Positions 5,960 through 31,657 of a DNA stretch of 63,664 bases are shown here, one piece after another. A program made the position numbers and the translations under genes. Below the pieces are notes generated by a model. It was given only the letters and a program-made list of their open reading frames with translations, was not told the DNA's origin and made no database searches. Origin of the DNA: Anaerolineae bacterium (GTDB lineage Bacteria; Chloroflexota; Anaerolineae; JAAEKA01); NCBI GenBank assembly GCA_032111745.1, contig JAULUH010000156.1, forward strand, positions 1-63,664, in the 5' to 3' direction. The first letter of the stretch is position 1. Each line of letters begins with the position of its first letter.

Positions 5960-6264
5960 GAGGATCGAACCAATAATAGTATATCACAACAATGGACAGA
6001 GCAATATGATCTGCGTCATATTTTTGCGGCAATGTGGCGTTGTCAGCCCATTCGCTGTCCTGTTGCCAATACCCTAGGCAGTGCTCACACCAAGATACTC
6101 ACGTGAATTACCGACAACGGTGCCATCAATCTCATTCGCCGAGCCGGCTATCGTTACATCCCGGGTGCCAAGCGCTTTCTGTCAGCAAGACCCGACCGGA
6201 GCCCTGCCCTTCTGTATGCCCCGTAATCGTCAGAGAACTGAGAACCCTACCCCTGACCCCTGTA

Positions 6265-6293
6265 TTGACACCCAGAACACTTGTTCGTATAAT
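6265..6293 (+). promoter_or_regulatory. Consensus sigma70-type promoter TTGACA-17-TATAAT
   Basis: TTGACAcccagaacacttgttcgTATAAT. It is followed by AGGAG and the ATG at 6312, giving a very short leader. Confidence 0.7.
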
Positions 6294-6311
6294 AGAATCA
6301 GGAGCCGTTCC

Positions 6312-13614: not shown

Positions 13615-13654
13615 CAGGGAAACGTGGGTGTGGACAGAAAGGGGAGATATCAAA

Positions 13655-13682
13655 GGGCGGGTGCTTTGCGAAGCACCCGCCC
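13655..13682. terminator. Bidirectional hairpin terminator between convergent genes
   Basis: Perfect 12-bp stem gggcgggtgctt / aagcacccgccc with loop tgcg, 41 nt after the giant CDS stop. A second GC hairpin with a 17-nt tandem repeat (ggcctccgtgcccgcc x2, 13705..13737) sits next to the BY-kinase stop. Confidence 0.7.
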
Positions 13683-13763
13683 TTACCATCACGTCGTAGG
13701 GGCGGGCCTCCGTGCCCGCCCGGCCTCCGTGCCCGCCTAGCCCTGGCATAAACGCCGCTGGGA

Positions 13764-15422
13764 CTATTTGGCGCCCGTGCCAGCCCCTGGTAATAGCCGG
13801 CGCCAATCCTGCGGCTTGCTCCGGCGGCCCTGGCTGCCGCCAGTGCCACCATCACCACCGCCGCCCTCTTCATCCTGGCTGTAGTACTGGTGGTAGTAGT
13901 AGTAGTAGTATGAGCCACTACCGCGCGGCTGTATGCGGTTCAGCGACACGCCCAGGATATTCGCACCAACCTTCTCCAGCGCCTCCTTGGCGTTCTGAGC
14001 TATCTGGCGCCGGGTGATCCCGGCCTCGACCACCAACACCACACCGTCGGTCTGCCGGGCCAGGATGGCCGCATCGGTCACGGCCAGCGTCGGCGGGCTG
14101 TCCAGCAGAACTACATCGGCGCGATCCGCCAGCTGATGCAGCAGGTCGCGGAAGCGCTCCGAGCCCAGCATCTCCGCCGGGTTAGGGGGTAGTGGCCCCG
14201 TGGTAAGCACCTGCAGGTTTTCGTAGCGCGTATCCTGCAACAGGCTGTCCAGGTCGGGCTGGACTTGCAGCAAGGCGTTGGACAGGCCGATGCTGTTGGG
14301 CAGCTGGAACAGCCGGTGCAGGGTCGGCCGCCGCAGGTCAGTGTCCATCAGGATCACGCGCTGGCCCTGCTGGGCCATCACCAACCCCAGGTTGGCCAGG
14401 GTCGTGCTCTTGCCCTCACTGGGGCTGGAGCTGGTGATCATCAAGGTGCGAGGTGGATTGTCCAGCGCCGAGAACTGGATGTTGGTGCGCAAGATGCGGT
14501 AGGCTTCGGCAGTGGGAGACTTGGGCTGCAGCCCGGCCACGAGCTTCTGCTCCGGCGACTCGCCCTCGATCTGCGTCACGGCACCCAGGGTGGTTAGATC
14601 CAGCGAGTTCTTAATATCGTCGGGATTCTTCAACGTGTCGTCGAGGTAGTCCAACAGAAAGGCCGCCCCCAGGGCCAGCAGCATGCCGATCGCCGCGGCC
14701 AGCACGATGGTCAGGGCTTTGTTGGGTCCAATAGGCTCCGTGGGCAGCTCGGCCGGCGCGACGACGTTGACGGCATTGATGCCGCCGCCTACGAAGCCCA
14801 GGAGCTGGGCATAGTTGGCCTGATAGGTGGTCAGTTTCTGTTCCAGGGCTTGGATCTGGGTCTGGGTGTCGGCGATCTGGCGCGCGCTGAACATATTGCC
14901 CAGCTGCTGCCTGAGCTCGTCAACTCGAACGGTGGTTTCGTCGATGTTCCGTTCCAGGTCCTGCAGCTGCTTGGTCACGAAATCACGCCGATCCTGGGTT
15001 ACCTTGGCAACGCCGCTGGGGCTCTGCTCGATCAACTGGTTCGCCAGCTCGTTGGCTACGGCCTGCGCGCGCTGGGGGCTGGTGTCCGCAACGCTAATCT
15101 CGATCAACTGCGTGTTTGGCACCAGAGACACCGAATAGTTGGGCAACCATTTCAAGCCCAAGGCCTGCATCGTCGCCAGGCGCACCGTATCGCGACGAGC
15201 CAGCTCGGCGTAGGTCTGGGCCAACTGCTGGCCCAGCCACAGGTCGTTGGCTACCGGGTTGGGGTTCTCGATGGTGCTGCCGATCATCAGCGTCGTCTTG
15301 GCGCTGTAGACCGATGGTTGCTGGCGCGTAGCGATAAAACTGGCTGCCATCGCCACCAGGGTCGACAACAGGATAAGCCACAGCCATTTGCGAATGGTTT
15401 GAAAGTACTGGCGAAGTTCCAT
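13764..15422 (-). CDS. Polysaccharide co-polymerase (Wzz domain) fused to BY tyrosine autokinase
   Basis: N-terminal Wzz-like TM plus coiled-coil region. Walker A SSSPSEGKSTTLANLG, DTDLRRP, Walker B VVLLDSPP. C-terminal Tyr cluster GSGSYYYYYYHQYYSQ. Confidence 0.9.
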   Translation of the reverse strand: MELRQYFQTIRKWLWLILLSTLVAMAASFIATRQQPSVYSAKTTLMIGSTIENPNPVANDLWLGQQLAQTYAELARRDTVRLATMQALGLKWLPNYSVSLVPNTQLIEISVADTSPQRAQAVANELANQLIEQSPSGVAKVTQDRRDFVTKQLQDLERNIDETTVRVDELRQQLGNMFSARQIADTQTQIQALEQKLTTYQANYAQLLGFVGGGINAVNVVAPAELPTEPIGPNKALTIVLAAAIGMLLALGAAFLLDYLDDTLKNPDDIKNSLDLTTLGAVTQIEGESPEQKLVAGLQPKSPTAEAYRILRTNIQFSALDNPPRTLMITSSSPSEGKSTTLANLGLVMAQQGQRVILMDTDLRRPTLHRLFQLPNSIGLSNALLQVQPDLDSLLQDTRYENLQVLTTGPLPPNPAEMLGSERFRDLLHQLADRADVVLLDSPPTLAVTDAAILARQTDGVVLVVEAGITRRQIAQNAKEALEKVGANILGVSLNRIQPRGSGSYYYYYYHQYYSQDEEGGGGDGGTGGSQGRRSKPQDWRRLLPGAGTGAK

Positions 15423-15439
15423 AGGCCTTTACGGGTTCC

Positions 15440-17752
15440 TCACTTGATCCAGACCGGTTCCCAATCGTTGTGTTGATTGCTACTCACGTTGCGCAGGCTG
15501 GTACCGTTGGCGTTCATCACCCATAGCTGACGCCGGCCCTCACCGCGGTTGGAGTAGAACAGAATCTGGCTGCCGTCGGACGACCACGCCGGGGAGCGAT
15601 CCCACTCCCAGGTGTTGCGCGTCAGTTGGCGCAGATCGCTGCCGTCGCGTGCCACCAGGTAAACCTCGTCGTTGCCGGAGGAGTTGGAGACCAGGGCCAC
15701 GGTCTCGCCGCCAGGCGACCATACGGCATCAAAGGTGGCGCCTCGCACGCTGACCAGGCGCCGCCGGGAGCCGTCGATCTCATTCTGCACGATGACCTGG
15801 GGCCGGCGAGCCAGGTCCAGCTCCTCGAGCAGGCGCTCGGTGCCATCAGGCGATAGGGCCTGGCGAGCCACCGCGGCCTGGTAGGCCGGCAGATCCTCTG
15901 CCAGCAAGGGCTCTGCCTGGGTGCAGCCTTCCGTGCTGTTGACGCAAGCCGCATCGGCCACGAAGAGCTGGGGGGCTCCCAGCCGGTCGGACAGGAACAC
16001 GATCTTGTTGCGTAGCCGGTCCGGCACATCGCTCTCCGCCGGAATCGTGGGCAGCGGTGTCGCCGTGGGCACCTCCACCGCGACCTGGTTGGCCGGCGGC
16101 GTACCTGTGGTCAACGCACTGATGGTGGCATAGGCCGCCTGGGCCACCGCCGTCTGCTCGTTGGCTGCTGGCCCCAGGGACAAAGGCGTGGGGGTGGCCG
16201 TAGTGACCCCTGGTAGTGACACCACGGGCGGGCCCGCCTCCACGGTACGGGTAGCCTCGGCGATCGCATAGGCCAGTTGCGTAGCCACATTCTCCGCCGT
16301 CGGCGTATTGGTTACCACAGCCAGAATCGGCGTGGGCGTGGCGGTCACAGCATAGTCCGGAATCGGCGTCCACGTGCCTGTAGTCAGGGCCTGGGCCGTC
16401 GCGTACACGGCAATGGCCGTGGCTGTGGCATCATTGGCCGGCACGAGGGTCGGAATCACCACAGGCGGCAACCCCAGGGACTGGCGCTCTGCGTCCGCGG
16501 TTTCCTGGTTAACCGGTGTGGGCGTTGCGGTTACCATCGCGCGTGGGGTTGGCGCCGGTGTGCCGACCTCCATCGCAAAAGCGGTGGCGCTCAGGGCAAT
16601 AGCCGCGGCCGTCAACACGTTCTCCGGCGTTGGGGTGCTGGTCACCACAATGAAATCCCGGGTCGGAATCGGCGGCGGCGTGGCCGGAGGTGGGCCGTTG
16701 ATCACAATCAGCCTCGGGCTATTGCCCAGGGTCTCGGGTCCCTGGCCCGAGTCCCACGTGAACAGGTTATCAGGACCAGTCTCCGGGCCATCCAACCGAA
16801 ACACCAGCTGTGTCTTCTGATCGACGACCGCCTGCTCCAATACCTTCAACTGCTCTTCGCTGAGCACGAAGCGATTGGAGACCAGCGGCTTCACCTCTGT
16901 CTGGGCCACAGGAGGAACCAGGGACTGCACAACCGGGGCGTTGTGTAGTTCCTGATAGGTCAGCTGGCTCCAGCTCTCACCAACCTGGGGGGCCATCAAC
17001 TTGACCTCCCAGATGCCGTTGGCGCCTGGTTCCAGCCGGCTGTCGTCCAGGCCGGTGATCTCCAATGCCACATAGCGGATGGGCGCGCCGCGGGGGAGAC
17101 GGGACAGGTCAAATAGGATGGCACTGTGGATCAGGGCCTCCTGATACTTGCCGGCGTGCAGGAAAGAGTCGCCAAAATAGCTGTCGCGCGAGTCAAGGCT
17201 GCCGAACCATCCCACCCCAGCGGGCGATGGTGTGATCTCCACGCGAACCTCATCGCCGGCGATGGTTGGCACTGCGCCAGGCGCTTGGGCCACTGGCACC
17301 GAACCTGGCGCGTCCGCCAGTAGGGGCGGGGGTGGGGTTGGGATTGCACTGGTCGTGCTCGGGGCTGGCGCTGTCTCCGCCACCGTCGCCGGCGTGGGGG
17401 TGGAGGCACCAGGGGCAGCCAGCAAGCGTATCAGCTGCCATCCGGCGAGGAGCGCCACGACGCCGACCGCAGCCCATAGCACCCACCGCAGCCACGGCAC
17501 AGCCCGCTGCGGAGTTGCTGATTCGTTTTCATTATGCAAGGCGACGGGAGAGCCCTGAAGGCGCGCCTGAAAGCGCGGGCAATTGACGTGCTCTGCCGTC
17601 AAGCAATAATGGCTTTGGTGCTCTGCACTGGGCGAGTGCTCCCCGTCGCTGGGGAGAGCAAAACAGCGATGGCTCTCGCTGGCATAGCTGTAGCGCAAAG
17701 CCGGGTCGCTCTTGAGGCCCACATAGGGGCATACAACATCACCAGTTGGCAT
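15440..17752 (-). CDS. Membrane protein: Cys/His-rich cytoplasmic N-terminus, TM helix, Pro/Thr-rich region, TolB-like (PD40) beta-propeller
   Basis: Start placed at ATG MPTGDVVCPYVGL; the track start 17836 is a TTG. N-terminal motif: CPYVGL...HRCFA...HYCLTAEHVNCPRF. TM helix: WVLWAAVGVVALLAGWQLI. C-terminal PD40-type repeats: VWSPGGETVALVSNSSGNDEVYLV, PAWSSDGSQILFYSNRGEGRRQLWVMN. Confidence 0.75.
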   Translation of the reverse strand: MPTGDVVCPYVGLKSDPALRYSYASESHRCFALPSDGEHSPSAEHQSHYCLTAEHVNCPRFQARLQGSPVALHNENESATPQRAVPWLRWVLWAAVGVVALLAGWQLIRLLAAPGASTPTPATVAETAPAPSTTSAIPTPPPPLLADAPGSVPVAQAPGAVPTIAGDEVRVEITPSPAGVGWFGSLDSRDSYFGDSFLHAGKYQEALIHSAILFDLSRLPRGAPIRYVALEITGLDDSRLEPGANGIWEVKLMAPQVGESWSQLTYQELHNAPVVQSLVPPVAQTEVKPLVSNRFVLSEEQLKVLEQAVVDQKTQLVFRLDGPETGPDNLFTWDSGQGPETLGNSPRLIVINGPPPATPPPIPTRDFIVVTSTPTPENVLTAAAIALSATAFAMEVGTPAPTPRAMVTATPTPVNQETADAERQSLGLPPVVIPTLVPANDATATAIAVYATAQALTTGTWTPIPDYAVTATPTPILAVVTNTPTAENVATQLAYAIAEATRTVEAGPPVVSLPGVTTATPTPLSLGPAANEQTAVAQAAYATISALTTGTPPANQVAVEVPTATPLPTIPAESDVPDRLRNKIVFLSDRLGAPQLFVADAACVNSTEGCTQAEPLLAEDLPAYQAAVARQALSPDGTERLLEELDLARRPQVIVQNEIDGSRRRLVSVRGATFDAVWSPGGETVALVSNSSGNDEVYLVARDGSDLRQLTRNTWEWDRSPAWSSDGSQILFYSNRGEGRRQLWVMNANGTSLRNVSSNQHNDWEPVWIK

Positions 17753-17870
17753 CAGAAGCTTTGTTTTTCCTTTTTTCACCTGTGGAGTCGACACTCGGTG
17801 GAGCGCGATTATACCACCTTCACAAGGCCGGGACAATTCGGGCGGTCGAGCTTGCGCCCCTTCATGCCCG

Positions 17871-18731
17871 TTACCCTTCCATCTGCCCCCTTGCTGCGGA
17901 CAAGGCCTCCAACAGAAATGGCCACAGGTCCGTTGTAGGACGATAACGCAGGCGGTACGCGGGTACCTGCGCCGCCAGGCGTTCCACCACGGCCAGCCAG
18001 GCCAGGGCGCTGGATACCCGCTCTACGGCCACCTTTTCGGTCGCCAGCAGGCCCAGCGCGGCCTGGCCGGGATCCAGCGGCTCCAGCGCAAACTCTGGCC
18101 CATGTTCCAGTAGCAGCAAGGCCTGCAGAGGCAGGCGACGGTTACGGCGTTGCACCATTTCCGGCGGCGTACTGGCGCCCCAAAATGGCGTGCTCGCCAG
18201 CATGGGCTGCGTCCCGGCCAGTGACACCACCAGGGTCTCGTCCGTCAACACCTCCGCATATCCCGCCGCCAGCCGCGATAGCGTGGTCTTGCCTGCACCC
18301 GATGGCCCGCAGCAGGCCAGGCCCATGCCGTCCAACACGATCGCTGCGCCGTGCAACAGCAGCCCCTCATGTTCCCGGGGTAGGGCCTGCATGCAGATGA
18401 AGCCCAGCACCCGATCCAGGGCCGATGGCGCCCGTTCCGGCGACGGCGTGCTGACCTCAGCCCGTCGCTCGACCAGGTCGATCCATCCTTCGTGTGCGGA
18501 GACTCCGAAGCGAGTCACGTCGCCCTCGTGCACAACCCAGGGCGCGTCCTGGTCGGACCGGCTGGCAGCGTGGATCACGGCCACATCCCAGGGAGGCATC
18601 TCGCCCGCCGGCGCGCCTACCGGCAGACCAAATTCAGCATAGCGCGCGACCAGGGCCGCCAGCCAGGTGCGCTCCGGCACGTGCACCACGCAGCGCACGC
18701 CGGCGATGTCAACGGTGAAGTCGTGGAACAT
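17871..18731 (-). CDS. HPr kinase/phosphorylase-like (HprK-related) P-loop protein
   Basis: 286 aa. The C-terminal half has LLLHGAAIVLDGMGLACCGPSGAGKTTLSRL, matching the HprK C-terminal P-loop. No HPr or PTS context is present. Confidence 0.75.
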   Translation of the reverse strand: MFHDFTVDIAGVRCVVHVPERTWLAALVARYAEFGLPVGAPAGEMPPWDVAVIHAASRSDQDAPWVVHEGDVTRFGVSAHEGWIDLVERRAEVSTPSPERAPSALDRVLGFICMQALPREHEGLLLHGAAIVLDGMGLACCGPSGAGKTTLSRLAAGYAEVLTDETLVVSLAGTQPMLASTPFWGASTPPEMVQRRNRRLPLQALLLLEHGPEFALEPLDPGQAALGLLATEKVAVERVSSALAWLAVVERLAAQVPAYRLRYRPTTDLWPFLLEALSAARGQMEG

Positions 18732-18773
18732 AGGACTAGATGGCCAGTTCGCAGGGCGCGCTTCAGAGCGCCG

Positions 18774-19961
18774 CTACGAGCTAGGAGGCTTGGAGGACTG
18801 CGCCTGGCTGGTGAGCAGCTCCCGGAGGCCCAGCACCCAGCGGTAGGGATAGGCCAGGGGTACCAGCCAGTCGCTGTCAAGGGCGTAGCGCTGCCGCATA
18901 TAGTTGCGTGATGGAAACAGATGGGCCAGGGCAAAGGGCACTCGGGCCCGCCAGCCTGGTAGGCCGGCCAGGTCGGCCCAGAAGCGCTGGGCCACCGGTC
19001 GCTCCGGCGCAGTGAGCCAGCTCACCACGCGCTGCTCCACCGGCGATACCGGCAGGGCCAGCGCCTCGGCCAGCTGCGCCTCAGGAATGGGTACCGCCCA
19101 CTCCCCGGCCAGCTCTGCCAACACGCGCTGCACGGGCGTCACCAGGTGAAATGCGCCGGCCTTCTCAAGCAACATATCCCAATCGATCAGGGCGCCGGAC
19201 AGTGCCACCAGGGTGGCGATGTCATAGAACCAGCGCAGCCCCACCCCTTTGTGATGCAGCACCAGGTGCGCCGACAGATAGAGCAGATTAGCCTCCGGGC
19301 TCAGCACCTGCGCAGGCCGCCCGGCCAAAGTGAGTTCTCGGGCCGTCTGCCAGAACCAGTCCGTGGCCAGCCTCTCCTGGTAGTAGGGTGCATCTAGTAG
19401 ATACCAGTGGATTTCCAGGGTCACCGGCACCACGCCCGGCCGCCGCAGGGTGATCTCGTTCTCGTACGCCAGGGTCAGCCCGGGGTGCGGCTCATCGTGA
19501 ACCCGCCCGTAGCCCAGGGCCTCCAGCTGCGCCACTGCGGCCAGAACGTCGTCAGCGCGAAACAACAGATCGACGTCGGTCATCGGGCGCAGGGCAGCGT
19601 TGCCGTATAATTCCTCGCCCAGAGCTGCGCCCTTGAGCACGATCACAGGTAGGCCTGCGGCGGCCAGCGAGTCCAGCGCCTCGGCCAGCCCCATGCCGAC
19701 ATAGGCATTCTGGATCGCGGTCTGCTGGTAGATCCACAGCAGTGCTTCCTCCACCGGGGCTGGCACCAGGTCACGACCGCGCACTGCGTCGTAAAGCAAT
19801 GGCCCCACGCCCACCGGCCCGACATGTTCCAGAAGGCCAGGCCAGTCCAACTCGGGTCTGGTGGCCTCGCTGCGCGCAGCGTCCAGCGCCGCCGGTTCCC
19901 AACGGCTACGCAGGCATTGCACGAGGAAATCCCAGGTTGGTTGATCCAATTGAGCAGGCAT
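18774..19961 (-). CDS. Uncharacterised nucleotidyltransferase family protein (NTP_transf_5-like)
   Basis: VIVLKGAALGEELYGNAALRPMTDVDLLF and TLEIHWYLLD motifs typical of this family. The start is 9 nt after the C25 gene stop. Confidence 0.7.
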   Translation of the reverse strand: MPAQLDQPTWDFLVQCLRSRWEPAALDAARSEATRPELDWPGLLEHVGPVGVGPLLYDAVRGRDLVPAPVEEALLWIYQQTAIQNAYVGMGLAEALDSLAAAGLPVIVLKGAALGEELYGNAALRPMTDVDLLFRADDVLAAVAQLEALGYGRVHDEPHPGLTLAYENEITLRRPGVVPVTLEIHWYLLDAPYYQERLATDWFWQTARELTLAGRPAQVLSPEANLLYLSAHLVLHHKGVGLRWFYDIATLVALSGALIDWDMLLEKAGAFHLVTPVQRVLAELAGEWAVPIPEAQLAEALALPVSPVEQRVVSWLTAPERPVAQRFWADLAGLPGWRARVPFALAHLFPSRNYMRQRYALDSDWLVPLAYPYRWVLGLRELLTSQAQSSKPPSS

Positions 19962-19970
19962 GCATTGCTC

Positions 19971-22898
19971 TCAGTGCGCCGCTGCCGGCACCAGAGCCCA
20001 ACCTTTCGTCACGTGGGGCAGGTACATCCTGCCTCCAGACGGCACGCGCAACCGGAGCGCAGGATCACCCAAGAAGACCGTGGTGTCCACGACGTCGCGT
20101 GAGCTACTGCCACCGGCGATGAAATAGGCCTTCGCCGCGTTAACCGCGAGCCCTGCCCGGTCTGTTCGATCCTGGAAGATGGCCCTCGACAATCCCTGGT
20201 CCAGCCCCAGCAGGGAACCGCCTACGTGAAGCCCGGTAGGCGACAGGTCAGCCACCACACCCCGGCCTGGAGTGAGCAGCAGCACTTCGCCCAGGGAGCG
20301 CTCGTCAAAATTGTACGTGGCGATGCTCTGAATGCCGACGAAGTAGCCGGACCAACAGGTGTAGTGGGCGCTGAAAGGTAGGCCCGCCCCAGGGGCGAGG
20401 GTAGCAGGATCGAGAGTGTTGAATACGTCGACGGTTCCCCAGCGGAAGCGCGAGGCGTGGCCGTACCACTGCAGGTAGAGGGCACCTTCGGCAAACGCGG
20501 TCTTGATGGCAGCACGTACCTCAGGGCCCGAATCGTGGGCACTATCCATGTTGAAGTAGATCGCCCGGCTCTGTGTGCCGGGGGGCAGGGCCAGGCGCAC
20601 CGTGTCGCTGAGCCGGTGGAAGTTGCCGGCAGGATCTGCGTTGTTGTCGGCCACGAACACTGCCCGGCGCTGCCAGCTACCCGCTGGCGCAGTCTTTTCG
20701 TAGGCGATGATCTTGTCGACCACGGCCGTGACGTCTGCGGGGGTCTTGGCCGGGATGCGGCCTAGCGCCATGTCGGGCATGTAGTCATTTGGGCCGTCCA
20801 CGCTGACATAGCGGTTGTCTGCAGCGGTCTCACCGATGAACGGATCGATGTGCAGCAGATAGGGAGGGAGAAGGTTGGGCAGGCTGGGAGCCACCGCACC
20901 CTTGAAGTCGATGTGGCCATCTCCCACCAGTAACACGTACTGCGGCGGCGCTTGGCCCGCATTCCAGTTGCGGTAGGCGTAGGAAAGGAAGGAGCGGATC
21001 GCCTCCGGATCCACACGGCCGAAGCTGAACTCGTCGTAGATGTCCTGCACGTCCACCTTGGCCACCCGCAGCCCTTCGGCGGCCCGATGGTTCAGTAAGG
21101 GCTGGACAGCATCCCAGAGGGAGAAGTGGACGATGGCGATGTAATCGGCCCGGTTGCCCGGGGCGCGCCAACTCGAGGGCTGGTCCACTTCCACCGCCCT
21201 GGGCGCCAGCAGGCCAGCATCGCTGCTAAGCACGTAGCGAGGCGCGGCATCCGCAGCCTGCCAGGCATCCCAGAAGCGTATCGTGGTGCTGCCGCCCACG
21301 GCCTCGGCCTGCACGGTGCCCAGCTGCACCGGGCGCAGGGGATTGCGCACGTCCAACACCCGCACGGCACCGGTGGTGAACCCGGTGACAGACACCTGCG
21401 CGCGCTGGCCAGTGACGGCCAGGCCGTCGATCCCGATTTGGTCGTTCTCGGCGTCAGCGCGCGCTGGATATGTGATCTCCACCCAGTCAGGCGAGACCCA
21501 ATAGCTGGAAACAGTGGGCAGCTGGGCTAGCGCGGCCTCCAGGGTAATACGGCTGGGGGAGGTGTCGAGCCAGGCCGCGGGCACCGCGGCCTGGGCTACG
21601 AACGGGGTGCTGCCATCCCAGGTGAACACTCCGGCTGGCTGGCCGTTCACCTGCAGGGCCACGGACTGGTCGGGCGCCGCGGCCTGGGACTGGCCGCCGT
21701 GCAGGCGAGCACGGATGGTGGCGGAATTGGACTTAGAACTTAACGGCGAATGGGTAGAAGGCGGAACGGATAGCGCTTGCGGGGCCAGGTCATCGAGGAC
21801 AAAGTCGTAGGTCACACGGGCGGTGGGGGACTGGGTGTTGACAGAGAGCGGGTTGTCGAAGAAATGGTCGACGTCCCTGGGAAGGGGGTAGGTACTGTAG
21901 TAGATCCGGTCGAACTCGACCCGCGCGGTTTGGAGGATGGTGATGACGAGAGGCTCGGAACCGGTGGGGGGCACGTCGCGGCGTTGCACACGGCCGCCGG
22001 CCGCGCCGCCATAGGCCAGACGGTAGACGTTGCGCGTCGTATAACGGCCCTCGTAGGGCTCGCCGTAGAAGACCACCAGGTCACCAGCATCGAAGCGGCC
22101 ATCGTCGCTGCCGGTCACCAGGATATCCACTGGCTGGCCCAGATAGGTCATGGAGAAAGTGGCCGGGTTCAACGAAGCCACGGGCACGCCCGCGGCCTGC
22201 AGCTCGCCATAGGTCAGGCGATACAGGCCGCCGCGCCCGGTGTAGACACGCACTGCACCCTGCTCCGCGGCGGGTTGCTGTGCAACCGCGGTAACGGGCT
22301 CGAGTGCCTCCGGCTCCGGGGCCACAGGCGTAAACGACAGGGTAATCCCTAGGTCGGGATGATAACGCAGCTGGCCAGATACAGGGTTAACCTGGAACGG
22401 GAACACGGTTACCGGCAATAGTCGCCGGCCGCGCTGGACCAGTTCGGGGCCGGTCACGACCGGGCTGGCGGGGTAAAAGGCATCGGAGGTGTAGATGACG
22501 GGGTCAGGCCGGTCCACCAAGGGTACCGATCCTGGCAGGTCGGGTTGGGTCGTCCAGCTCTCTGGGTAGTTAAGGTCCAGCTCCGGCACGGGTACTGCCG
22601 GTAGCGTGCCGGGAGCCGCCAGCACTTGCGGGCCGGTCGACTCATAGACCAGGTGCCACTGGCCCTCGGGCGGCAGCTCCACCAGCGTCGACCACACAGG
22701 CAACGCCGGCGCGCCGGGCGTGTCGTGCGCGGCGTAGCCCTCCACGCGCAGGCCATCACCGTCAAGGTGGTAGGTGGGAGTCTGCACGCGCAGGGTGATC
22801 GGCTCAGGCTGTTCAGGCCTCGCCGCAGCGGGCGTCACAGAGGCCAAAAGCACGCCAACGACCAGTAAGAGGGCTAAGGCTTTCGTACGAATCGACAA
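19971..22898 (-). CDS. Secreted peptidase C25 (gingipain-like) family protein
   Basis: TTG start with GAGGA SD and signal peptide ALALLLVVGVLLASVTPAAA. C25 core: YVLLVGDGHIDF...DNRYVSVDGPNDYMPDMALGRIPA. Putative catalytic His in LQWYGHASRF and Cys in SAHYTCWSGYF. Confidence 0.8.
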   Translation of the reverse strand: MSIRTKALALLLVVGVLLASVTPAAARPEQPEPITLRVQTPTYHLDGDGLRVEGYAAHDTPGAPALPVWSTLVELPPEGQWHLVYESTGPQVLAAPGTLPAVPVPELDLNYPESWTTQPDLPGSVPLVDRPDPVIYTSDAFYPASPVVTGPELVQRGRRLLPVTVFPFQVNPVSGQLRYHPDLGITLSFTPVAPEPEALEPVTAVAQQPAAEQGAVRVYTGRGGLYRLTYGELQAAGVPVASLNPATFSMTYLGQPVDILVTGSDDGRFDAGDLVVFYGEPYEGRYTTRNVYRLAYGGAAGGRVQRRDVPPTGSEPLVITILQTARVEFDRIYYSTYPLPRDVDHFFDNPLSVNTQSPTARVTYDFVLDDLAPQALSVPPSTHSPLSSKSNSATIRARLHGGQSQAAAPDQSVALQVNGQPAGVFTWDGSTPFVAQAAVPAAWLDTSPSRITLEAALAQLPTVSSYWVSPDWVEITYPARADAENDQIGIDGLAVTGQRAQVSVTGFTTGAVRVLDVRNPLRPVQLGTVQAEAVGGSTTIRFWDAWQAADAAPRYVLSSDAGLLAPRAVEVDQPSSWRAPGNRADYIAIVHFSLWDAVQPLLNHRAAEGLRVAKVDVQDIYDEFSFGRVDPEAIRSFLSYAYRNWNAGQAPPQYVLLVGDGHIDFKGAVAPSLPNLLPPYLLHIDPFIGETAADNRYVSVDGPNDYMPDMALGRIPAKTPADVTAVVDKIIAYEKTAPAGSWQRRAVFVADNNADPAGNFHRLSDTVRLALPPGTQSRAIYFNMDSAHDSGPEVRAAIKTAFAEGALYLQWYGHASRFRWGTVDVFNTLDPATLAPGAGLPFSAHYTCWSGYFVGIQSIATYNFDERSLGEVLLLTPGRGVVADLSPTGLHVGGSLLGLDQGLSRAIFQDRTDRAGLAVNAAKAYFIAGGSSSRDVVDTTVFLGDPALRLRVPSGGRMYLPHVTKGWALVPAAAH

Positions 22899-22993
22899 AG
22901 TAGTCTATCCTCTGATCAGGATGCATGGGCAGGTTTGTCGCGCGCACTGAAGTGCGCTACGAACCTATTATACTCCTGGACCGGGCGACAAAG

Positions 22994-23028
22994 GAGACGC
23001 CGGGCCCCGGTGAAGGGCCCGGCGTCTC
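22994..23028 (-). terminator. Intrinsic terminator after CDS 23054..24622
   Basis: Perfect 14-bp stem gagacgccgggccc / gggcccggcgtctc with a 7-nt loop. It is followed on the minus strand by CTTTGT, 26 nt after the stop. Confidence 0.7.
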
Positions 23029-23053
23029 TGCCTTGCGTGGGTATCGAGGTTGG

Positions 23054-24622
23054 CTAGCGCTTGCGGCGCTGCGCCACGAACGCTGCGGCCATGGCCAGGC
23101 CGGCCGTGACCGGGACAGCCACCAGCGGCAGGCTCGCCGCGGCAGCACTACCGGCGTTCGCGCTCTGGCTGGAGAACTCGCTCAGGGTGACCGCGGTGGG
23201 ATCCAGGCAGGCGGCGCCGGCCGGCCCGCTGAGAGCAGTGGCTCCGCCGAGGTCGACGCTCTCGACCCAGTAGTAGTATGTATTGCCGGTAACGGCCGTG
23301 CTGTCCACGAATTGGTAGGCAGCACCAGTGGTGCTACCGGGGACCTTGGACGGGATCAACGCGGCGTTGACCTGCTCCCGGGCACCGTCAACCGCAGTGC
23401 TGCGGTACACGTTGAAGCCCTGGTTATTTACCTCGCTCACCGTCTCCCAGGAGACCGTGGCGACGCCGGCGGAGCAGGTGGCTCCCAGGCTGGACATTTC
23501 CAGCGCAGTCGGACCTGCGGTATTGGTGAAAATGCACGTGGTGATCTCGCCCAAGGCCACATCCACCGTGACCTTCCGGTTGGTCAGGTCAACGTTGCCT
23601 GTGGTCTGCCCGTTCCTGGTGCACACCAGGCTGGACAGGGTCCAGCCCTCTTCGCCAAGATCGAACACCTCCTCCACCGTGTAGCTGCCGGCTTCGGCGA
23701 TGATCAGCTTTTTGGGATCCTGCGTATCGGTCAGAGAAAAGGTCTGGGTGTAGTCATTCGGGCCTGTGACGCCGAAGTCGAACACGTGGTTGGCACCCGG
23801 TGGATTGGTCACCTTGTCGACGATGATTTGCCCCGGCGCAATAATCTTGCCCCACAGGCAGGCCACGTTGTCGGTGCGTTCCTCGGTGATGAACTCCGTC
23901 TTCGTGCTGTCTTCGCCGGGGAACACCTGCTCAAGGCAGTTGCCGTTGGGCGGATCGGGGACGAAGCCCAGAATCTGCAGGGTGTATTCGGTACCTTCGC
24001 ATACGAAGGTAGTGCTGGGCACGCTGTCCACGGTCACCCTGTCCGGACATATCGTGTCTCCCTCATATTTGCACGGTTCCTGGTTAAAAGTCTCCTCGAG
24101 GTTGAATCGGTAGACCAACTCCGGTGTCACCGTGGAGTTGTCATTGCAGGTCACTGGTACCTTCACGGTCAGGTCCACGTAGTTGAGCGGATTCGGGAAG
24201 TTCAGCAGCGGGTTATTGTAATGAGTGAACTGGCCGAGGTAGAAGGGGGTCTGGGGAGCCAGATCGCCAACATCGTTATTGCCGTCGAAGCCGAAGCCGC
24301 TGCGGTCGCCAATGGGGCCGCAGTTCTCTCCAACCTCGCCATAGCGCACCTGGTTTTCGTCAGTGTCAGGCGGTGTCTGTATGGCTGGATCAGATTCGCT
24401 GCTTGCGGTCGGGAAGTCTCCCGGCCCAGTGGCCCAGGCATCACAGGTAGCTCCCTCTTCGTGAATTCCTGGCTTGGCATCTGGGATACCCCACACGCCG
24501 TCGACATTGCCCACGGCCAGAGCCGAGGCCACGGCGACGAGCAGCAACGTGATCACTGTAGCCAGCGTCACGGCTCTCGCTCCAACCGGTAGATGTCGCG
24601 ATATTCGCTTGCGAAAGGACAT
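23054..24622 (-). CDS. Secreted multidomain surface protein with C-terminal anchor-like tail
   Basis: Start set at AAGGAGG-ATG MSFRKRISRH (track start 24712 unlikely) with signal peptide VTLATVITLLLVAVASALA. A prealbumin/SpaA-like module (IIVDKVTNPPG...CIFTNT) is followed by an FN3-like 'WETVSEVNNQGFNVYRS...YYYWVESVD' module. C-terminus: AVTLSEFSS...LPLVAVPVTAGLAMAAAFVAQRRKR. Confidence 0.8.
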   Translation of the reverse strand: MSFRKRISRHLPVGARAVTLATVITLLLVAVASALAVGNVDGVWGIPDAKPGIHEEGATCDAWATGPGDFPTASSESDPAIQTPPDTDENQVRYGEVGENCGPIGDRSGFGFDGNNDVGDLAPQTPFYLGQFTHYNNPLLNFPNPLNYVDLTVKVPVTCNDNSTVTPELVYRFNLEETFNQEPCKYEGDTICPDRVTVDSVPSTTFVCEGTEYTLQILGFVPDPPNGNCLEQVFPGEDSTKTEFITEERTDNVACLWGKIIAPGQIIVDKVTNPPGANHVFDFGVTGPNDYTQTFSLTDTQDPKKLIIAEAGSYTVEEVFDLGEEGWTLSSLVCTRNGQTTGNVDLTNRKVTVDVALGEITTCIFTNTAGPTALEMSSLGATCSAGVATVSWETVSEVNNQGFNVYRSTAVDGAREQVNAALIPSKVPGSTTGAAYQFVDSTAVTGNTYYYWVESVDLGGATALSGPAGAACLDPTAVTLSEFSSQSANAGSAAAASLPLVAVPVTAGLAMAAAFVAQRRKR

Positions 24623-25095
24623 GGATTCCTCCTTGCCACTGGGGCAACTTGTGCGGAGATGTCTCACACACTCAATGAACTGCAGCACGGAATGTGCGCT
24701 GATCCGACTCAAGAGATGGGCTGGCGTCCATCACGGGCCTACCGATGGAGAACCCTTGGCTTCATGTGCTGCTAGCCAACCTTCCGGCCACGTGATCGAG
24801 GACCGGGCTGGGCGCCCGGGACAGGACCTTGGCTCCATCCGATCCAAGGGCTGAAGTCGAAGGAAGCCGGGAGGGATGCCCTGAACACAGCAGCATCCGC
24901 ATCATGGCCGTGACGTGATGCGACCGCGGCCATGATGCGAGCTTCTTCAGGGGTGACAACGGATCAAGCCCGGTTCCCACCAGGCAGGCCCTAACGGCCA
25001 GAGAGCACGGTTCTGGGTCGGCACAGGGCCAGCTACCATCCATGGGACAGCAGGCCGTGAAGCGCCAGATGGATCCGTTGATCGTCAGGAGTGCT

Positions 25096-25290
25096 CTAGC
25101 AAACGCCGGTATCGCCGGCAGATGTGGCCAGAGGGCCCAGGAAGTTCTGCGGTCCCTCGATCGACTGCGGAGGGAAGCTCTCCTGGGCGCGAGCTTCCAG
25201 CGTTCGCTCGAACACGATGGATGGCTTCTCCCACGAGCGGCGGCTCGGGGATGCGATGGTCGTCGACGTCAGTCTGGACGGAGTCTGCAT
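25096..25290 (-). CDS. Candidate precursor peptide (64 aa) of the adjacent radical SAM/PqqD cassette
   Basis: AGGAGG SD 5 nt before ATG, 43 nt downstream of the rSAM stop on the same strand. Third-position GC is high, as in neighbouring genes. Sequence: MQTPSRLTSTTIASPSRRSWEKPSIVFERTLEARAQESFPPQSIEGPQNFLGPLATSAGDTGVC. Confidence 0.55.
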   Translation of the reverse strand: MQTPSRLTSTTIASPSRRSWEKPSIVFERTLEARAQESFPPQSIEGPQNFLGPLATSAGDTGVC

Positions 25291-25333
25291 GAAATCCTCC
25301 TATGAGTGGTCAAACTGATAGCTTGGTCGCGGT

Positions 25334-26560
25334 CTATCCGTTCATCGGCAGTGCAAACCCGTCGATTCCGTCCAGTAGAGGGATCGGCTGGGCGAACGGC
25401 GTAGAGTTGGCTGCCGGCGGGTTGATGCGCAGGCGAGCCTGCAGAGGTGTCTCCGGGATCGCTTCTCCCGGATGCAGCTGGGCAAAGCGAGCCTGGGCCT
25501 GCTGGCAGGCCAGTGAATGGCCGCCGTACAGGTCACCGTGCTCTTTCCAGGCCAACCCGGAGCATCGTCCTTCGCAATAGGCGTTGATCGAGCACACCTG
25601 GCACTCGGGCAGGCTCTTGAAGGTGTGCCGCGCCTGTAGCTCTTGCAGGATAGGTGCGTTGGCCCAGATATCGCCGAAGCGTTGCTGGCGCAAATTGCCA
25701 GCCGGGATGCGCAATTCCAGGCACGGATAGACATCACCGTACGGGCTGATCAGGCACGACGATAGGCCCACCGAACAGGTGCGACTCTCAGGCTGCCGCA
25801 CGAGAGGCCTGAACTGGCCGCCGTCGGCGAGCATCGCTGCGGTAATCTGCAGGCGATCCAGCTGATGCTGGCCTGCCTTGTCGGTGCCATCGTCGGCCGT
25901 GGAAATCTTGAATACCTGCTCATAACGCACACCCAACTCCTGCGCCAACTTGATCATCTGCTGGCGCTCAGCGATGTTCAGATCCATCAGCAGGGTGTTG
26001 AGCTTCACCGGCACCCGCCGCTCCTGCAGGAGCTGGACTCCCCGCAGGACACGGCGCAGGGTGTCCTGGCTACGAGCGATGGCATCGAAAGTAGCCGCCG
26101 AGGCGCCCAGAAGGCTGATATCCACCCGAGACGGTGCCAGGGAAGCGATGCGATCGGCCCGCTCCGGTGTGATCAGCGTGCCGTTAGTCTTGAGATTGAC
26201 GTCAAAGCCCAGGGCCCGCGCTCGTTCGGCGATGCTGAAGAAATCGCGGCGGGCCAGAATCTCGCCACCGGTCAGGGTGAGCCGCAGGGTGCCGGCCTCC
26301 GCCAACTGGTCCAGCACGTGGAGGCACTCCTCAGTGTCCAGCTCCGGTTGAGCCAGAGGCACATTATAGCACATGATGCAGTCCAGGTTGCAGACGTGAG
26401 TCAGCTCCCACAGGACTGTAAACGGCACGTGCTCGCGCTTCAACCGAGACAGCAGCGCCTCGTACGGATCCGCCGCGCTATCGGGCACAGCGCAGCCATC
26501 GAAGCTGCGGTCCACGGGATCGGCGACCTGGGGTACGGCCAACGGGATCATCGTCGTCAT
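25334..26560 (-). CDS. Radical SAM enzyme with C-terminal SPASM-type auxiliary-cluster domain (peptide-modifying type)
   Basis: CNLDCIMC (CxxxCxxC) near residue 60. C-terminal Cys-rich region: CSVGLSSCLISPYGDVYPC ... CQVCSINAYCEGRC. Start taken at ATG 26560; the track TTG at 26566 is also possible. Confidence 0.9.
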   Translation of the reverse strand: MTTMIPLAVPQVADPVDRSFDGCAVPDSAADPYEALLSRLKREHVPFTVLWELTHVCNLDCIMCYNVPLAQPELDTEECLHVLDQLAEAGTLRLTLTGGEILARRDFFSIAERARALGFDVNLKTNGTLITPERADRIASLAPSRVDISLLGASAATFDAIARSQDTLRRVLRGVQLLQERRVPVKLNTLLMDLNIAERQQMIKLAQELGVRYEQVFKISTADDGTDKAGQHQLDRLQITAAMLADGGQFRPLVRQPESRTCSVGLSSCLISPYGDVYPCLELRIPAGNLRQQRFGDIWANAPILQELQARHTFKSLPECQVCSINAYCEGRCSGLAWKEHGDLYGGHSLACQQAQARFAQLHPGEAIPETPLQARLRINPPAANSTPFAQPIPLLDGIDGFALPMNG

Positions 26561-26575
26561 GTCCAACTGCTCAAC

Positions 26576-26848
26576 TCATTCTACCCAATCCACCAGGCCC
26601 CTGGTCTCCAGGTCAGAGAGAAACTCCGCCACCTGCTGTCGGGCCTCGGACAGCGACACCTCAAAGTCCTGGGTCAGGAGGGCGGCAATCTCATCCATGG
26701 TGCGGCTGCCGTCGGCCAGTTCCCAGATGCGCGACCCGGTGGGATTCAACATGCGCACCGTGTTCTCGGCCGGGCTGATGATAACGGCGTCCTGGCCGAA
26801 GACTCGCGAGGCCGTGCGTGGGCTGTGTAGGGGCTTGCGCTGATCCAC
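26576..26848 (-). CDS. PqqD-family protein (RiPP recognition element-type peptide chaperone)
   Basis: 90 aa with AGGAG SD and a GTG start. VIISPAENTVRMLNPTGSRIWELADGSRTMDEIAALLTQDFEVSLSEARQQVAEFLSDLETRGLV is a textbook PqqD/RRE pattern. Confidence 0.85.
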   Translation of the reverse strand: MDQRKPLHSPRTASRVFGQDAVIISPAENTVRMLNPTGSRIWELADGSRTMDEIAALLTQDFEVSLSEARQQVAEFLSDLETRGLVDWVE

Positions 26849-26876
26849 AACACTCTCCTAGGCGAATGTCCTAGAC

Positions 26877-26905
26877 ATTCTAAAGCAAGTCTAAACGGCT
26901 GTCAA
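26877..26905 (-). promoter_or_regulatory. Sigma70-type promoter TTGACA-17-TAGAAT for the PqqD-rSAM-peptide unit
   Basis: Minus strand reads TTGACAgccgtttagacttgcttTAGAAT in the 92-nt gap after the sugar-transferase stop, ~22 nt upstream of the PqqD start. Confidence 0.6.
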
Positions 26906-26940: not shown

Positions 26941-28443
26941 CTATTGACCCTTCAGTTGTAGCATCACAGAGATAGTGCGCAAGATGATGCGCAGGTCCAG
27001 CAGCATGTTGGCGTTCTTGACGTAGTACAGGTCATATTCCAGCTTGATACGCGAGTCGTCTACGGTGTTCCCGTAGCGATACTGCACCTGGGCCCAGCCG
27101 GTGATCCCTGGCCGCACCGCATGCCGGGCCCGGTAGAGGGGGACGGTCTTGGCCAGGCTCTCCACGAACTCGGGCCGCTCCGGCCGCGGGCCGATGAGGC
27201 TCATCTCACCGCGCAGCACGTTGATGAACTGGGGCAACTCGTCAATACGGGTCTTGCGCATGACACGCCCGGCCGGCGTGATGCGATCGTCGCCCGATCT
27301 AGCCCACACGGCGCCGGTGTGCTTCTCGGCATCCGGCACCATGGAACGAAACTTGATACAGTGGAAGGGCCGGCCACCTGCGCCCACGCGCCACTGGCGG
27401 TAGAACAGCGGCCCAGGAGAGAACATCCGGTTGGAGATAGCCACGAATGGGATCACCAACGCCAGCACAGCCATGCCGGCCAGGGAGGCGGCAAGGTCCA
27501 CCACCCGTTTGGCGACCAGGTACAATCGGTGGCCTGCGTCCTCATCCATGGGCAATGCGTCGCTCAAGTTGCGCCCCACGTGTTGCACGGGCACCCGCGC
27601 CAGCAGGCGCTCGTAGATGGTCGACATGGTGGTCACACGCAGGCCCAGCTCCCGGCAGCGCAGCAGTTCGTCGAACAGCCCGTCGACGATGTCATGCCGG
27701 TGGGTGATGGCCAGGATGATCTCATCCACATCCAGCGCCTGGGCCATGGGCACCAGCACACTGTGGCCTCCTAGCACCGGAATGCCCCGGACATCCTGAC
27801 CGTTCAGCTGCACCGAGTCGTCGACAAAGCCCATGATCTGATAGCCCGTGCCTCGATAGGGGTTGGCATCGTCCGGAGCCGTCCTAAACATATCCACCAA
27901 CGTGCGGCCCGCCAGGCCTGCGCCCACCACCAGGGCGCGCTGCGTGAAGCGGGGCTGCGCAAACAGGTTGGCATAGACAACGCGCCAGGCGGCGATGCTC
28001 ACCAGCGCCAGCCCGCCAAAGATGAAGATGATGCCCCGAGAGATCAGAGGAGGGGTCAGCTGCGGGATGAAGGTATAGACCAGCACCGTAGTTGCCACTG
28101 CAGCCGCCACGTTGCGAATGCTGTTCATGGTGCTGGCGGCGCGCGCCAGATCATACACGTCGAAGAACAGAGCTACCAGCCCCCATACCACCGTCAGGGT
28201 AATGTACCATTTGAAGGGGTCCAACAACTGGGCCAGCGTATCGGGCGTATCGTTGCCCAGGGCCCAGGCCACCATCAGCGCAGTGTTGAGCAAAAGAACA
28301 TCTATTATGAACAACAACACCTTGCGCTCTGAATTGCGCAGGCGCAAACTGGCCCCAGCCCCGCGTTTGGGTGACGTCAGAACGTAATCGGCCTTGCTCC
28401 GGTTGGATAAGCCTTCGTTGAAGCCTCTGGAGTCGAGACTCAT
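26941..28443 (-). CDS. Exopolysaccharide priming polyprenyl-phosphate sugar phosphotransferase (Bac_transf family, WbaP/EpsB-like)
   Basis: N-terminal TM bundle, a central nucleotide-binding-like domain (ALVVGAGLAGR) and the canonical C-terminus: GPLFYRQWRVGAGGRPFHCIKFRSM...DDRITPAGRVMRKTRIDELPQFINVLRGEMSLIGPRPERPEF. Confidence 0.9.
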   Translation of the reverse strand: MSLDSRGFNEGLSNRSKADYVLTSPKRGAGASLRLRNSERKVLLFIIDVLLLNTALMVAWALGNDTPDTLAQLLDPFKWYITLTVVWGLVALFFDVYDLARAASTMNSIRNVAAAVATTVLVYTFIPQLTPPLISRGIIFIFGGLALVSIAAWRVVYANLFAQPRFTQRALVVGAGLAGRTLVDMFRTAPDDANPYRGTGYQIMGFVDDSVQLNGQDVRGIPVLGGHSVLVPMAQALDVDEIILAITHRHDIVDGLFDELLRCRELGLRVTTMSTIYERLLARVPVQHVGRNLSDALPMDEDAGHRLYLVAKRVVDLAASLAGMAVLALVIPFVAISNRMFSPGPLFYRQWRVGAGGRPFHCIKFRSMVPDAEKHTGAVWARSGDDRITPAGRVMRKTRIDELPQFINVLRGEMSLIGPRPERPEFVESLAKTVPLYRARHAVRPGITGWAQVQYRYGNTVDDSRIKLEYDLYYVKNANMLLDLRIILRTISVMLQLKGQ

Positions 28444-31381: not shown

Positions 31382-31657
31382 TCATGGCGGCGCAGGCGTG
31401 CTCATCAACCGCGCATAGACCTGGTCTATCTGGCGGTACACCACCTGCCAGGCATACGTTTCCTCCACCCAGGCCTGGCCATTGGCCCGCAGCGCTGCGT
31501 TTAGCCCGGGATCCCGCAACACGCGCACTGTAGCCGCCGCAAAGGCCGCGGCATCGCCGGCAATCCGGATGTTCTCCCCGTCCCGCACCTCGATGCCCTC
31601 AGCACCGATAGGCGTGGCAACGGTAGGCAGGCCCCATATCGTTCCGGCATTGTTCAT
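31382..31657 (-). pseudogene. 3' remnant of a GT4 glycosyltransferase (last ~83 codons only)
   Basis: WGLPTVATPIGAEGIEVRDGENIRIAGDAAAFAAATVRVLRDPGLNAALRANGQAWVEETYAWQVVYRQIDQVYARLM aligns to the C-terminus of CDS 32867..34111 (most residues identical by eye). Homology stops abruptly at ~31632, where the HEPN gene ends. Confidence 0.7.

Follow-up and report, generated by a model that had tools for sequence, protein, structure and literature searches.

A 13-kb stretch of DNA from an Anaerolineae bacterium (GTDB lineage Bacteria; Chloroflexota; Anaerolineae; JAAEKA01) probably encodes a single, conserved, Chloroflexota-specific peptide-maturation system that is embedded in a cell-surface polysaccharide cluster. 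The stretch covers positions 13,764 to 26,905 of contig JAULUH010000156.1 (assembly GCA_032111745.1), of which positions 1 to 63,664 were analysed and are called the window below. The system consists of a PqqD-family peptide chaperone, a radical S-adenosylmethionine (rSAM) enzyme with a SPASM domain, a short precursor peptide, a secreted cysteine peptidase of family C25, an NTP_transf_5 nucleotidyltransferase (NTP5) and a P-loop protein of the ScmC family. The last three are encoded in one apparent operon with a TolB-like membrane protein and a Wzz-domain polysaccharide co-polymerase fused to a BY-kinase (Wzz/BY-kinase). The mechanism proposed below for the PqqD, rSAM, ScmC, NTP5 and C25 proteins is inferred. 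As in clusters for peptides that are made by the ribosome and modified after translation (RiPPs) generally, a short precursor with a leader and a core lies beside an enzyme gene, and a PqqD-like recognition element accompanies the modifying enzyme. The original prediction for this DNA had divided the genes into a PqqD-rSAM-peptide unit and a C25-NTP5-ScmC-TolB-Wzz unit, and had proposed that the two form a RiPP-like pathway wired into the control of exopolysaccharide (EPS) chain length. The roles that it assigned (recognition element, modifying enzyme, substrate, kinase, nucleotidyltransferase and protease) fit the domain and fold evidence.

Conservation of the gene module

Related loci were collected by a scan anchored on ScmC, using an alignment of ScmC homologues as the query and one genome per species, and neighbouring genes were identified by tblastn synteny. 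The scan yielded 49 loci, all of them from Chloroflexota (Anaerolineales, Caldilineales, Ardenticatenales and Thermoflexales). Among the related loci, L038 comes from Litorilinea aerophila, a species with cultured strains. In 20 of the 49 loci, PqqD and rSAM genes share the strand of ScmC and lie no more than 10 kb from it, and the usual contiguous order is (Wzz)-NTP5-(S24)-ScmC-PqqD-rSAM-peptide-C25, where S24 is a small peptidase gene discussed below. Of the 49 loci, 25 extend for 6 kb or more to either side of ScmC (the well-flanked loci); among these, rSAM is present in 11, C25 in 16, NTP5 in 19 and Wzz in 15. When the loci are viewed from the rSAM orthologues, PqqD is directly upstream in 37/40 loci, C25 is downstream in 22 of the 23 loci with room to test this, and ScmC lies no more than 2.5 kb upstream in 16 of 29 loci, with four more having it elsewhere in the locus. 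NTP5 adjoins either ScmC or PqqD in most related loci.

The genes fall into three sub-blocks: PqqD-rSAM-peptide-C25, which is the tightest, NTP5-(S24 peptidase)-ScmC, and (TolB-like)-Wzz. The second of these usually travels with Wzz/BY-kinase. In both cases checked in which the first two blocks are separated, they belong to the same genome (L030 and L055 in GCA_040766655.1; L034 and L135 in CAZKEF01). The recurrence of the same gene families together in dozens of other genomes is beyond chance. Proximity had been the sole basis for linking the two predicted units, and the link itself stands: many genomes have ScmC, NTP5 and C25 joined directly to PqqD-rSAM-peptide, in several different arrangements. 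The split between the units was misplaced, however. C25, which lies downstream of rSAM in nearly every locus where this could be tested, belongs with PqqD-rSAM-peptide and not with NTP5-ScmC-Wzz. On the evidence of sequence and of the comparison of loci, the module is real and conserved; it is probably Chloroflexota-specific, and its inheritance appears to be vertical.

The association extends to more distant relatives. In metagenome loci whose rSAM protein is only 31-41% identical, a ScmC-like gene is adjacent to rSAM in 26 of 42 cases, most of which also have PqqD. With ScmC beside rSAM even at this level of identity, the ScmC-PqqD-rSAM association is old and broad. A loose regular expression for the leader retrieved no convincing precursor from these distant cassettes. 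Two of the distant cassettes, on metagenome contigs of approximately 41% GC (L095 and L097), encode duplicated ScmC-like, PqqD and rSAM/SPASM proteins and a signal-peptidase-I-like protein. All of these proteins score below the equivalog cut-offs of the SynChlorMet (SCM) cassette, which is compared with the module in the final section, and no precursor was recognised in either cassette.

Several further genes accompany the module in its relatives. Most relatives encode an S24-like peptidase of 150-195 aa between NTP5 and ScmC (L004, 5505-5963; L050, 9525-10004; approximately 30 other loci). This protein has a GASMxPTL motif and matches Pfam S24 (E-value: 2e-6), and its gene often overlaps the start of ScmC. 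It is a candidate cytoplasmic leader peptidase; tblastn detected no such gene in the window. An alpha-2-macroglobulin-like protein of approximately 2,030 aa with an ECSEQ thioester motif is encoded directly after ScmC in L022 (11042-17143), L024, L029, L030, L041 and L048, which are loci of genomes with PqqD-rSAM-peptide-C25 located elsewhere. A NusG paralogue is encoded divergently on the opposite strand, approximately 0.6 kb upstream of the first module gene, in L052 (7410-7979, facing PqqD) and L136 (7186-7761, facing NTP5); beyond it are sulfate-activation and sugar-modification genes. In L135, a PAS/GAF histidine kinase and a response regulator (11334-14467) are inserted between rSAM and the peptide and C25 genes.

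Precursor peptide family

Forty-two unique homologues of the precursor were found adjoining rSAM orthologues. None of the Pfam and NCBIfam models matches the precursor. These peptides have in common a PqqA-like leader with the consensus (R/K)xxWExPxIxLERxLE..AQ, followed by a Pro/Gly-rich linker. The core consists of the motif [GA]P[LF]xxS, a Gly-rich stretch of variable length and a Cys located 0-4 residues from the C-terminus (41/42 precursors). This near-terminal Cys is the sole Cys in 37 of the 42, and the spacing between Ser and Cys differs by several residues among the precursors. Being invariant, the Ser and the Cys are the obvious modification sites. The precursor gene is usually present in a single copy, with two copies in L014, L015 and L020.

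Predicted maturation enzymes

Among proteins of solved structure, the rSAM enzyme is most similar to PqqE (E-value: 1.8e-22) and SkfB (E-value: 2.3e-18). Its orthologues are 52-92% identical across the Chloroflexota, and the cysteines of the CxxxCxxC motif (C59, C63 and C66) are invariant. The protein scores below the cut-off of every curated NCBIfam maturase.

The AlphaFold2 (AF2) model of ScmC has a pLDDT (predicted local distance difference test) of 94.4. In a Foldseek comparison it is most similar to phosphoenolpyruvate (PEP) carboxykinase (E-value: 1e-8) and HPr kinase/phosphorylase (E-value: 2.5e-6). Its Walker A motif (GPSGAGKT), H127 and D164-E165 are invariant, and both the fold and the Walker A loop are those of P-loop kinases of the HPr kinase/PEP carboxykinase type. 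In lasso peptide biosynthesis, experiments have shown that an HPr-kinase homologue phosphorylates a Ser in the precursor and that hexoses are added to the resulting phosphate by a nucleotidyltransferase (PMC8498205). For the ScmC/NTP5 pair, this tailoring is the best precedent from experiment.

Polysaccharide context

From approximately 62.8 to 13.7 kb, almost all genes of the window are on the minus strand and form part of a glycan cluster. This cluster encodes a priming glycosylphosphotransferase (SugTr), many glycosyltransferases of families GT2 and GT4, two Wzy-like proteins, Wzm/Wzt, RmlD, DegT and others. SugTr is the last gene of the approximately 35-kb co-directional part of the cluster and lies directly upstream of PqqD. 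The peptide module is therefore situated between the priming transferase and Wzz/BY-kinase, and is more than a mere neighbour of the kinase operon.

This arrangement is found in other genomes as well. SugTr adjoins PqqD in L081 and L137, as in the window. The order SugTr-stp1-NTP5-ScmC-PqqD-rSAM-peptide-C25-Wzz is found in L016 and L027, and the order TolB-Wzz-NTP5-ScmC-PqqD-rSAM in L035, L037, L042, L065 and L068. The genes for the TolB-like protein and Wzz are paired in these last five loci and in L001, L005, L024, L026 and L033. Overall, Wzz/BY-kinase is within 10 kb of ScmC in 15 of the 25 well-flanked loci, and the module is found inside EPS clusters in no fewer than four gene orders. A tie of the module to envelope polysaccharide is partly supported: it recurs in several gene orders, and it is facultative, not universal. 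The predicted wiring into EPS chain-length control holds insofar as Wzz is often near ScmC and the module lies between SugTr and Wzz in several genomes, but it does not extend to the stand-alone blocks and the EPS-less clade described below. That the peptide acts as a regulator, primer or anchor for the polysaccharide is speculation.

Proposed model for peptide maturation

The favoured pathway would begin with PqqD, which would bind the leader and present the peptide to the PqqE/SkfB-like rSAM/SPASM enzyme. This enzyme would install a cross-link, most likely a thioether formed from the sole Cys. ScmC would phosphorylate the invariant Ser, as its fold and the lasso peptide precedent suggest, and NTP5 may then extend the phosphate with a nucleotide or sugar, following the same precedent. 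An alternative chemistry would be elimination of the phospho-Ser followed by addition of the Cys, giving a lanthionine-type ring. The product would presumably reach the cell surface, where C25, to judge from its gene adjacency and predicted localisation, may cut off the leader or transfer the peptide. In the last and weakest step, the product would act in, or attached to, the envelope polysaccharide layer. It is placed there because the module recurs between the priming glycosyltransferase and Wzz/BY-kinase.

A number of observations weigh against this pathway. One group of loci (type II; L003-L012 and L017-L019), which forms the sister clade to that of the window in the ScmC tree, has the order FN3 protein-C25-S24-ScmC, after which come housekeeping genes. 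Within 10 kb, these loci have none of the PqqD, rSAM and peptide genes, and there are no EPS genes nearby. In L053, L054, L055 and L135, PqqD-rSAM-peptide-C25 stands alone beside LonC, NfeD and MreB, again with no EPS genes nearby. The loci are related by phylogeny, so the counts given above do not represent independent events. ScmC matches the HprK profile with E-values of approximately 0.003-0.008, its likeness to HprK and the lasso peptide kinases being confined to the fold and the P-loop. The phospho-Ser of lasso peptides is C-terminal, whereas the invariant Ser is internal here and the conserved terminal residue is a Cys. The precursor has no export signal while C25 is secreted, and the module has no dedicated transporter. 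All of the proposed chemistry, and the proposed role, are inferred only.

Some of these observations would be expected if the genes formed a self-contained RiPP pathway, producing a signal or an antimicrobial, with no function in EPS production. Its position near EPS loci would then be due to inherited synteny or to shared regulation of envelope genes. This explanation is possible, if somewhat unlikely. It accommodates the stand-alone blocks and the type II clade, and in the window hairpins and promoter-like sites split PqqD-rSAM-peptide, the surface-protein gene and the C25-to-Wzz operon from one another. It does not sit well with the finding that Wzz, SugTr or stp1 is within 10 kb of ScmC in 15 of the 25 well-flanked loci and in four or more gene orders, which points to proximity that is maintained and not to frozen synteny. 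The gaps in C25-NTP5-ScmC-TolB-Wzz are merely 9-42 nt in the window. In addition, the core is conserved and usually single-copy, unlike the hypervariable cores of antimicrobial RiPPs.

C25 peptidase and the C-terminal sorting module

The closest solved relative of the C25 peptidase is PorU (6za2; E-value: 4.5e-18). The GH of its WYGHAS motif aligns with the GH of YAGHGG in PorU, and the motif TCWSGYF contains the candidate catalytic Cys, an assignment made by eye only. An N-terminal signal peptide is present in the window protein and in its orthologues. Together with the kinship to PorU, this indicates that C25 acts outside the cytoplasm.

The surface protein encoded next to C25 has a signal peptide, a choice-of-anchor-K domain, a C-terminal FN3-like beta-sandwich, the motif PTAVTLSEF, a membrane helix and an RRKR tail; the FN3-like fold of its C-terminal domain was identified from an AF2 model with Foldseek. 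The sorting-type module itself (23054-23515, minus strand) consists of AVTLASF, the FN3-like beta-sandwich (WETxSE..GFNLYR...YYYWLEDVD), PTAVTL, the membrane helix and RRKR. The same module is present on proteins of L003 (909-6401) and L034 (7859-10927). A word-indexed search with the module gave 9 matches only. An exhaustive profile search of 1.84 billion representative proteins was far more sensitive, with the module found in 16,012 representative clusters at an E-value of 1e-10 or lower. In the best 150 matches, which are proteins of 130-2,735 aa, the module nearly always ends at the extreme C-terminus. This module is not covered by any model of Pfam or NCBIfam. It is borne by very diverse secreted proteins, including amylopullulanase-sized enzymes near C25, and genes for module-bearing proteins neighbour C25 in most loci, those of type II included. 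A different C-terminus is found on the FN3-module proteins of L025, L032, L035, L037 and L044 and on the C25 protein of L050, which end in a short (L/W)WLP(L/M)V-type tail rather than in a helix and basic tail. This tail may be a second kind of C-terminal signal.

Given the occurrence of the sorting module around C25 and the kinship to PorU, C25 could be a sorting enzyme of the PorU type. Two reports describe PorU as a sortase through which cargo becomes attached to anionic lipopolysaccharide (LPS) (PMC8545088, PMC4560394). A C25 transpeptidase of this type would cut the sorting module off surface proteins, and the modified, phosphoglycosylated peptide would be the acceptor, or the linker to the polysaccharide. 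Such a function would account for the link of a peptide modified in the cytoplasm with a secreted peptidase and with genes of EPS export, and it accords with the very large size of the module family and its position at the extreme C-terminus of diverse proteins. It is nonetheless unlikely. The support for it is purely contextual, the C25 protein of the window falls below the NCBIfam cut-off for type IX secretion system (T9SS) sortases (198.2 vs 420 bits), and the window proteins that were scanned showed no further T9SS parts. Furthermore, type II loci encode C25 and FN3 proteins with no peptide nearby, so the peptide may be dispensable.

A more specific proposal would make the peptide a structural linker that carries a phospho-Ser, is phosphoglycosylated, primes or caps the polysaccharide, is exported and then serves as the acceptor for C25 as it cuts the signal made up of FN3, PTAVTL, helix and RRKR. 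The probability of this is low. If true, it would represent a ribosomal-peptide-based, sortase-like anchoring of proteins to exopolysaccharide in the Chloroflexota.

Gene organization in the window

The features of the 13-kb stretch and of the adjoining SugTr gene are listed in Table 1. Every gene named in the original prediction is on the minus strand at the position given for it there, and the gaps from C25 to Wzz/BY-kinase, recomputed from the coordinates of the open reading frames (ORFs), are in agreement (9, 42, 34 and 17 nt, with the third being 118 nt when measured from an internal ATG).

Table 1. Features of the peptide-maturation module and its surroundings in the window
Feature	Position	Strand	Evidence or remark
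PqqD-family peptide chaperone (RiPP recognition element)	26576-26848	minus	Pfam PqqD 65.8 bits (cut-off 23.4)
Radical SAM/SPASM peptide-modifying enzyme, PqqE/SkfB-like	25334-26566	minus	Pfam Radical_SAM 85.5 bits; SPASM 42.4 bits
Precursor peptide, 64 aa, MQTPSRLTSTTIASPSRRSWEKPSIVFERTLEARAQESFPPQSIEGPQNFLGPLATSAGDTGVC	25096-25290	minus	AGGAGG ribosome-binding site
Surface protein	23054-24622	minus	True ATG at 24622
Secreted C25-family cysteine peptidase, PorU-like	19971-22898	minus	Pfam Peptidase_C25 248.8 bits
NTP_transf_5 nucleotidyltransferase	18774-19961	minus	Pfam 164 bits
ScmC-family (HprK-like) P-loop protein, putative peptide Ser kinase	17871-18731	minus	Pfam PF27840 ScmC (precomputed annotation)
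TolB-like membrane protein, Cys/His-rich N-terminus	15440-17836	minus	One membrane helix; PD40 propeller
Wzz-domain polysaccharide co-polymerase fused to BY-kinase	13764-15422	minus	NCBIfam eps_fam 198.5 bits (cut-off 108); Pfam Wzz, GNVR
Priming polyprenyl glycosylphosphotransferase (context)	26941-28443	minus	NCBIfam EPS_sugtrans 367.9 bits (cut-off 295.55)
Sigma-70-like promoter match, TTGACA-17-TAGAAT (11/12)	26877-26905	minus	Consensus match only; 92-nt gap before PqqD
Perfect 13-bp hairpin, possible terminator	24898-24939	minus	Approximately 157 nt past peptide stop
Perfect 14-bp GC hairpin followed by CTTTGT, terminator-like	22994-23028	minus	Directly past surface-gene stop

The peptide ORF starts 43 nt past the rSAM stop codon. 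Between the precursor gene and the surface-protein gene is a spacer of 473 nt (24623-25095), which contains the 13-bp hairpin. A 93-aa ORF in this spacer (24762-25043) was considered as the small peptide and rejected in favour of 25096-25290, as it matches no family. No RNA family was found in an Rfam scan of the whole window, so an explanation of the spacer as a riboswitch or small RNA is unsupported. The description of the surface-protein gene as terminator-bounded is reasonable but soft: two perfect hairpins do flank the gene, but neither was flagged by a consensus terminator scan because they are not followed by a T-run. A TATAAT sequence is located upstream of the C25 gene.

The TolB-like protein begins with a Cys/His-rich N-terminus in the cytoplasm, crosses the membrane with one helix and continues through a Pro/Thr-rich linker into a PD40 propeller. 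Like Wzc-type co-polymerase/BY-kinases, Wzz/BY-kinase combines Wzz and GNVR domains with a P-loop kinase domain and ends in a Tyr cluster (YYYYYYHQYY). PADLOC identified no defence system in the window, its one match being a generic likeness of rSAM to viperin.

Four other genes of the window should be mentioned. A HepT-like toxin-family gene (31654-32175, minus strand; Pfam HepT-like_2, E-value: 6.5e-32) is located among the glycosyltransferase genes, and a 568-aa rSAM protein is encoded at the far end of the glycan cluster (61125-62831, minus strand). On the plus strand, 6081-7493 encodes an rSAM protein that matches, below the cut-off, a UDG-linked putative DNA modification/repair family (303 bits vs 343.5), and 8011-13614 encodes a protein of 1,867 aa with an N-terminal PQQ-like beta-propeller. 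The latter gene converges on the Wzz gene, and its product has no FN3 sorting module.

Significance

Activated sludge, sediments and hot springs harbour Anaerolineae and Caldilineae in large numbers, and both the envelope biology and the filament sheaths of these bacteria are poorly understood. Under the favoured reading, one peptide-maturation system within a polysaccharide cluster, the gene set is phylum-wide and its precursor peptide is readily recognised. A peptide predicted to be modified by rSAM is thereby connected with a secreted peptidase of the PorU type and with a C-terminal sorting module that is unannotated and, as a family, very large. If the link to the envelope is true, the system would represent a new way to decorate or anchor cell-surface polymers. 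Even without this link, it would be a tractable new class of RiPP in which the predicted modified residues are one Ser and one Cys.

Comparison with known systems

The PQQ and mycofactocin systems (PqqA/D/E and MftA/B/C, respectively) resemble the module in having a short precursor, a WxxP-type leader, a PqqD-family chaperone and a SPASM rSAM enzyme. They differ in their accessory enzymes and in the core, which here lacks both E-x3-Y and a C-terminal GVY and instead ends in a Gly-rich stretch and Cys. It is very improbable that the peptide is the sacrificial precursor of a small redox cofactor of this kind, decorated by the kinase, the nucleotidyltransferase and nearby glycosyltransferases: PqqE is the closest solved relative of rSAM, the PqqA-like leader, conserved and usually single-copy precursor and vertical-looking inheritance are as expected, and weak MftF-like and MftM-like matches are present in the glycan cluster of the window, but rSAM scores far under the cut-offs for PqqE (106.3 vs 381 bits) and MftC (124.6 vs 265 bits), the Ser-to-Cys spacing is variable, unlike the fixed spacing of cofactor-forming residues, the constant partner is a large secreted peptidase and not a cytoplasmic one, and no dehydrogenase partners were seen in the neighbourhoods.

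PorU of the Bacteroidota T9SS is comparable in that it is a secreted C25 peptidase, that neighbouring surface proteins have a C-terminal beta-sandwich and that the locus is associated with polysaccharide. The window protein has the C25 catalytic domain and the His of PorU. The systems differ in that the window protein is below the T9SS_sortase cut-off, as noted above, and none of the other T9SS families was matched among the scanned window proteins. With its membrane helix and basic tail, the sorting module is closer to LPXTG and PEP-CTERM signals than to the T9SS C-terminal domain. No precedent for a C25 enzyme genetically coupled to an rSAM-modified peptide was found in the searched literature.

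The phosphorylated and phosphoglycosylated lasso peptides paeninodin and pseudomycoidin are produced by systems that, like the module, combine a PqqD-type element with an HPr-kinase homologue and a nucleotidyltransferase (PMC8498205). Lasso systems also have an Asn-synthetase-like cyclase and a B2 leader peptidase, neither of which was matched among the scanned window proteins. Unlike these systems, the module uses an rSAM/SPASM protein as the core-modifying enzyme.

The nearest catalogued relative is the SCM cassette (NCBIfam TIGR04248-04251, Pfam PF27840), in which an HprK-like ScmC is likewise found beside a PqqD homologue and PqqE-like rSAM/SPASM enzymes. ScmC is the best NCBIfam match of the P-loop protein of the window. 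The window proteins nevertheless score below the SCM equivalog cut-offs (ScmC, TIGR04249: 30.9 vs 125 bits; ScmD, TIGR04248: 35.0 vs 100 bits; ScmE and ScmF: 90.1 and 79.8 vs 400 bits), and the SCM cassette has two rSAM/SPASM enzymes (ScmE and ScmF) where the module has one. Two other catalogued systems were considered and rejected, namely HPr-rel-A (TIGR04352/TIGR04353; kinase A 18.3 vs 200 bits, PqqD_rel_X 26.9 vs 35 bits) and GeoRSP, whose equivalogs also gave scores below their cut-offs. To our knowledge, the SCM cassette is uncharacterised and has no identified precursor; the searched literature yielded no paper on this cassette, and we know of no identified substrate or function for the wider family of ScmC/PqqD/rSAM cassettes.

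The original prediction had held that no described system has this combination of genes. No description of the system was found in the searched literature, and to this extent the claim stands. The grouping of ScmC, PqqD and rSAM/SPASM is already catalogued, however, in the names of NCBIfam and Pfam models, and tailoring by an HprK homologue and a nucleotidyltransferase is known from lasso peptides. Beyond what is present in the SCM cassette, the module has its own precursor family, NTP5, a secreted C25 peptidase, often an S24 peptidase, and an EPS/Wzz context. The gene set is therefore a variant of the uncharacterised ScmC/PqqD/rSAM-SPASM cassettes, and what is new in it is the precursor family, the secreted PorU-like C25 peptidase and the neighbouring unannotated sorting module.

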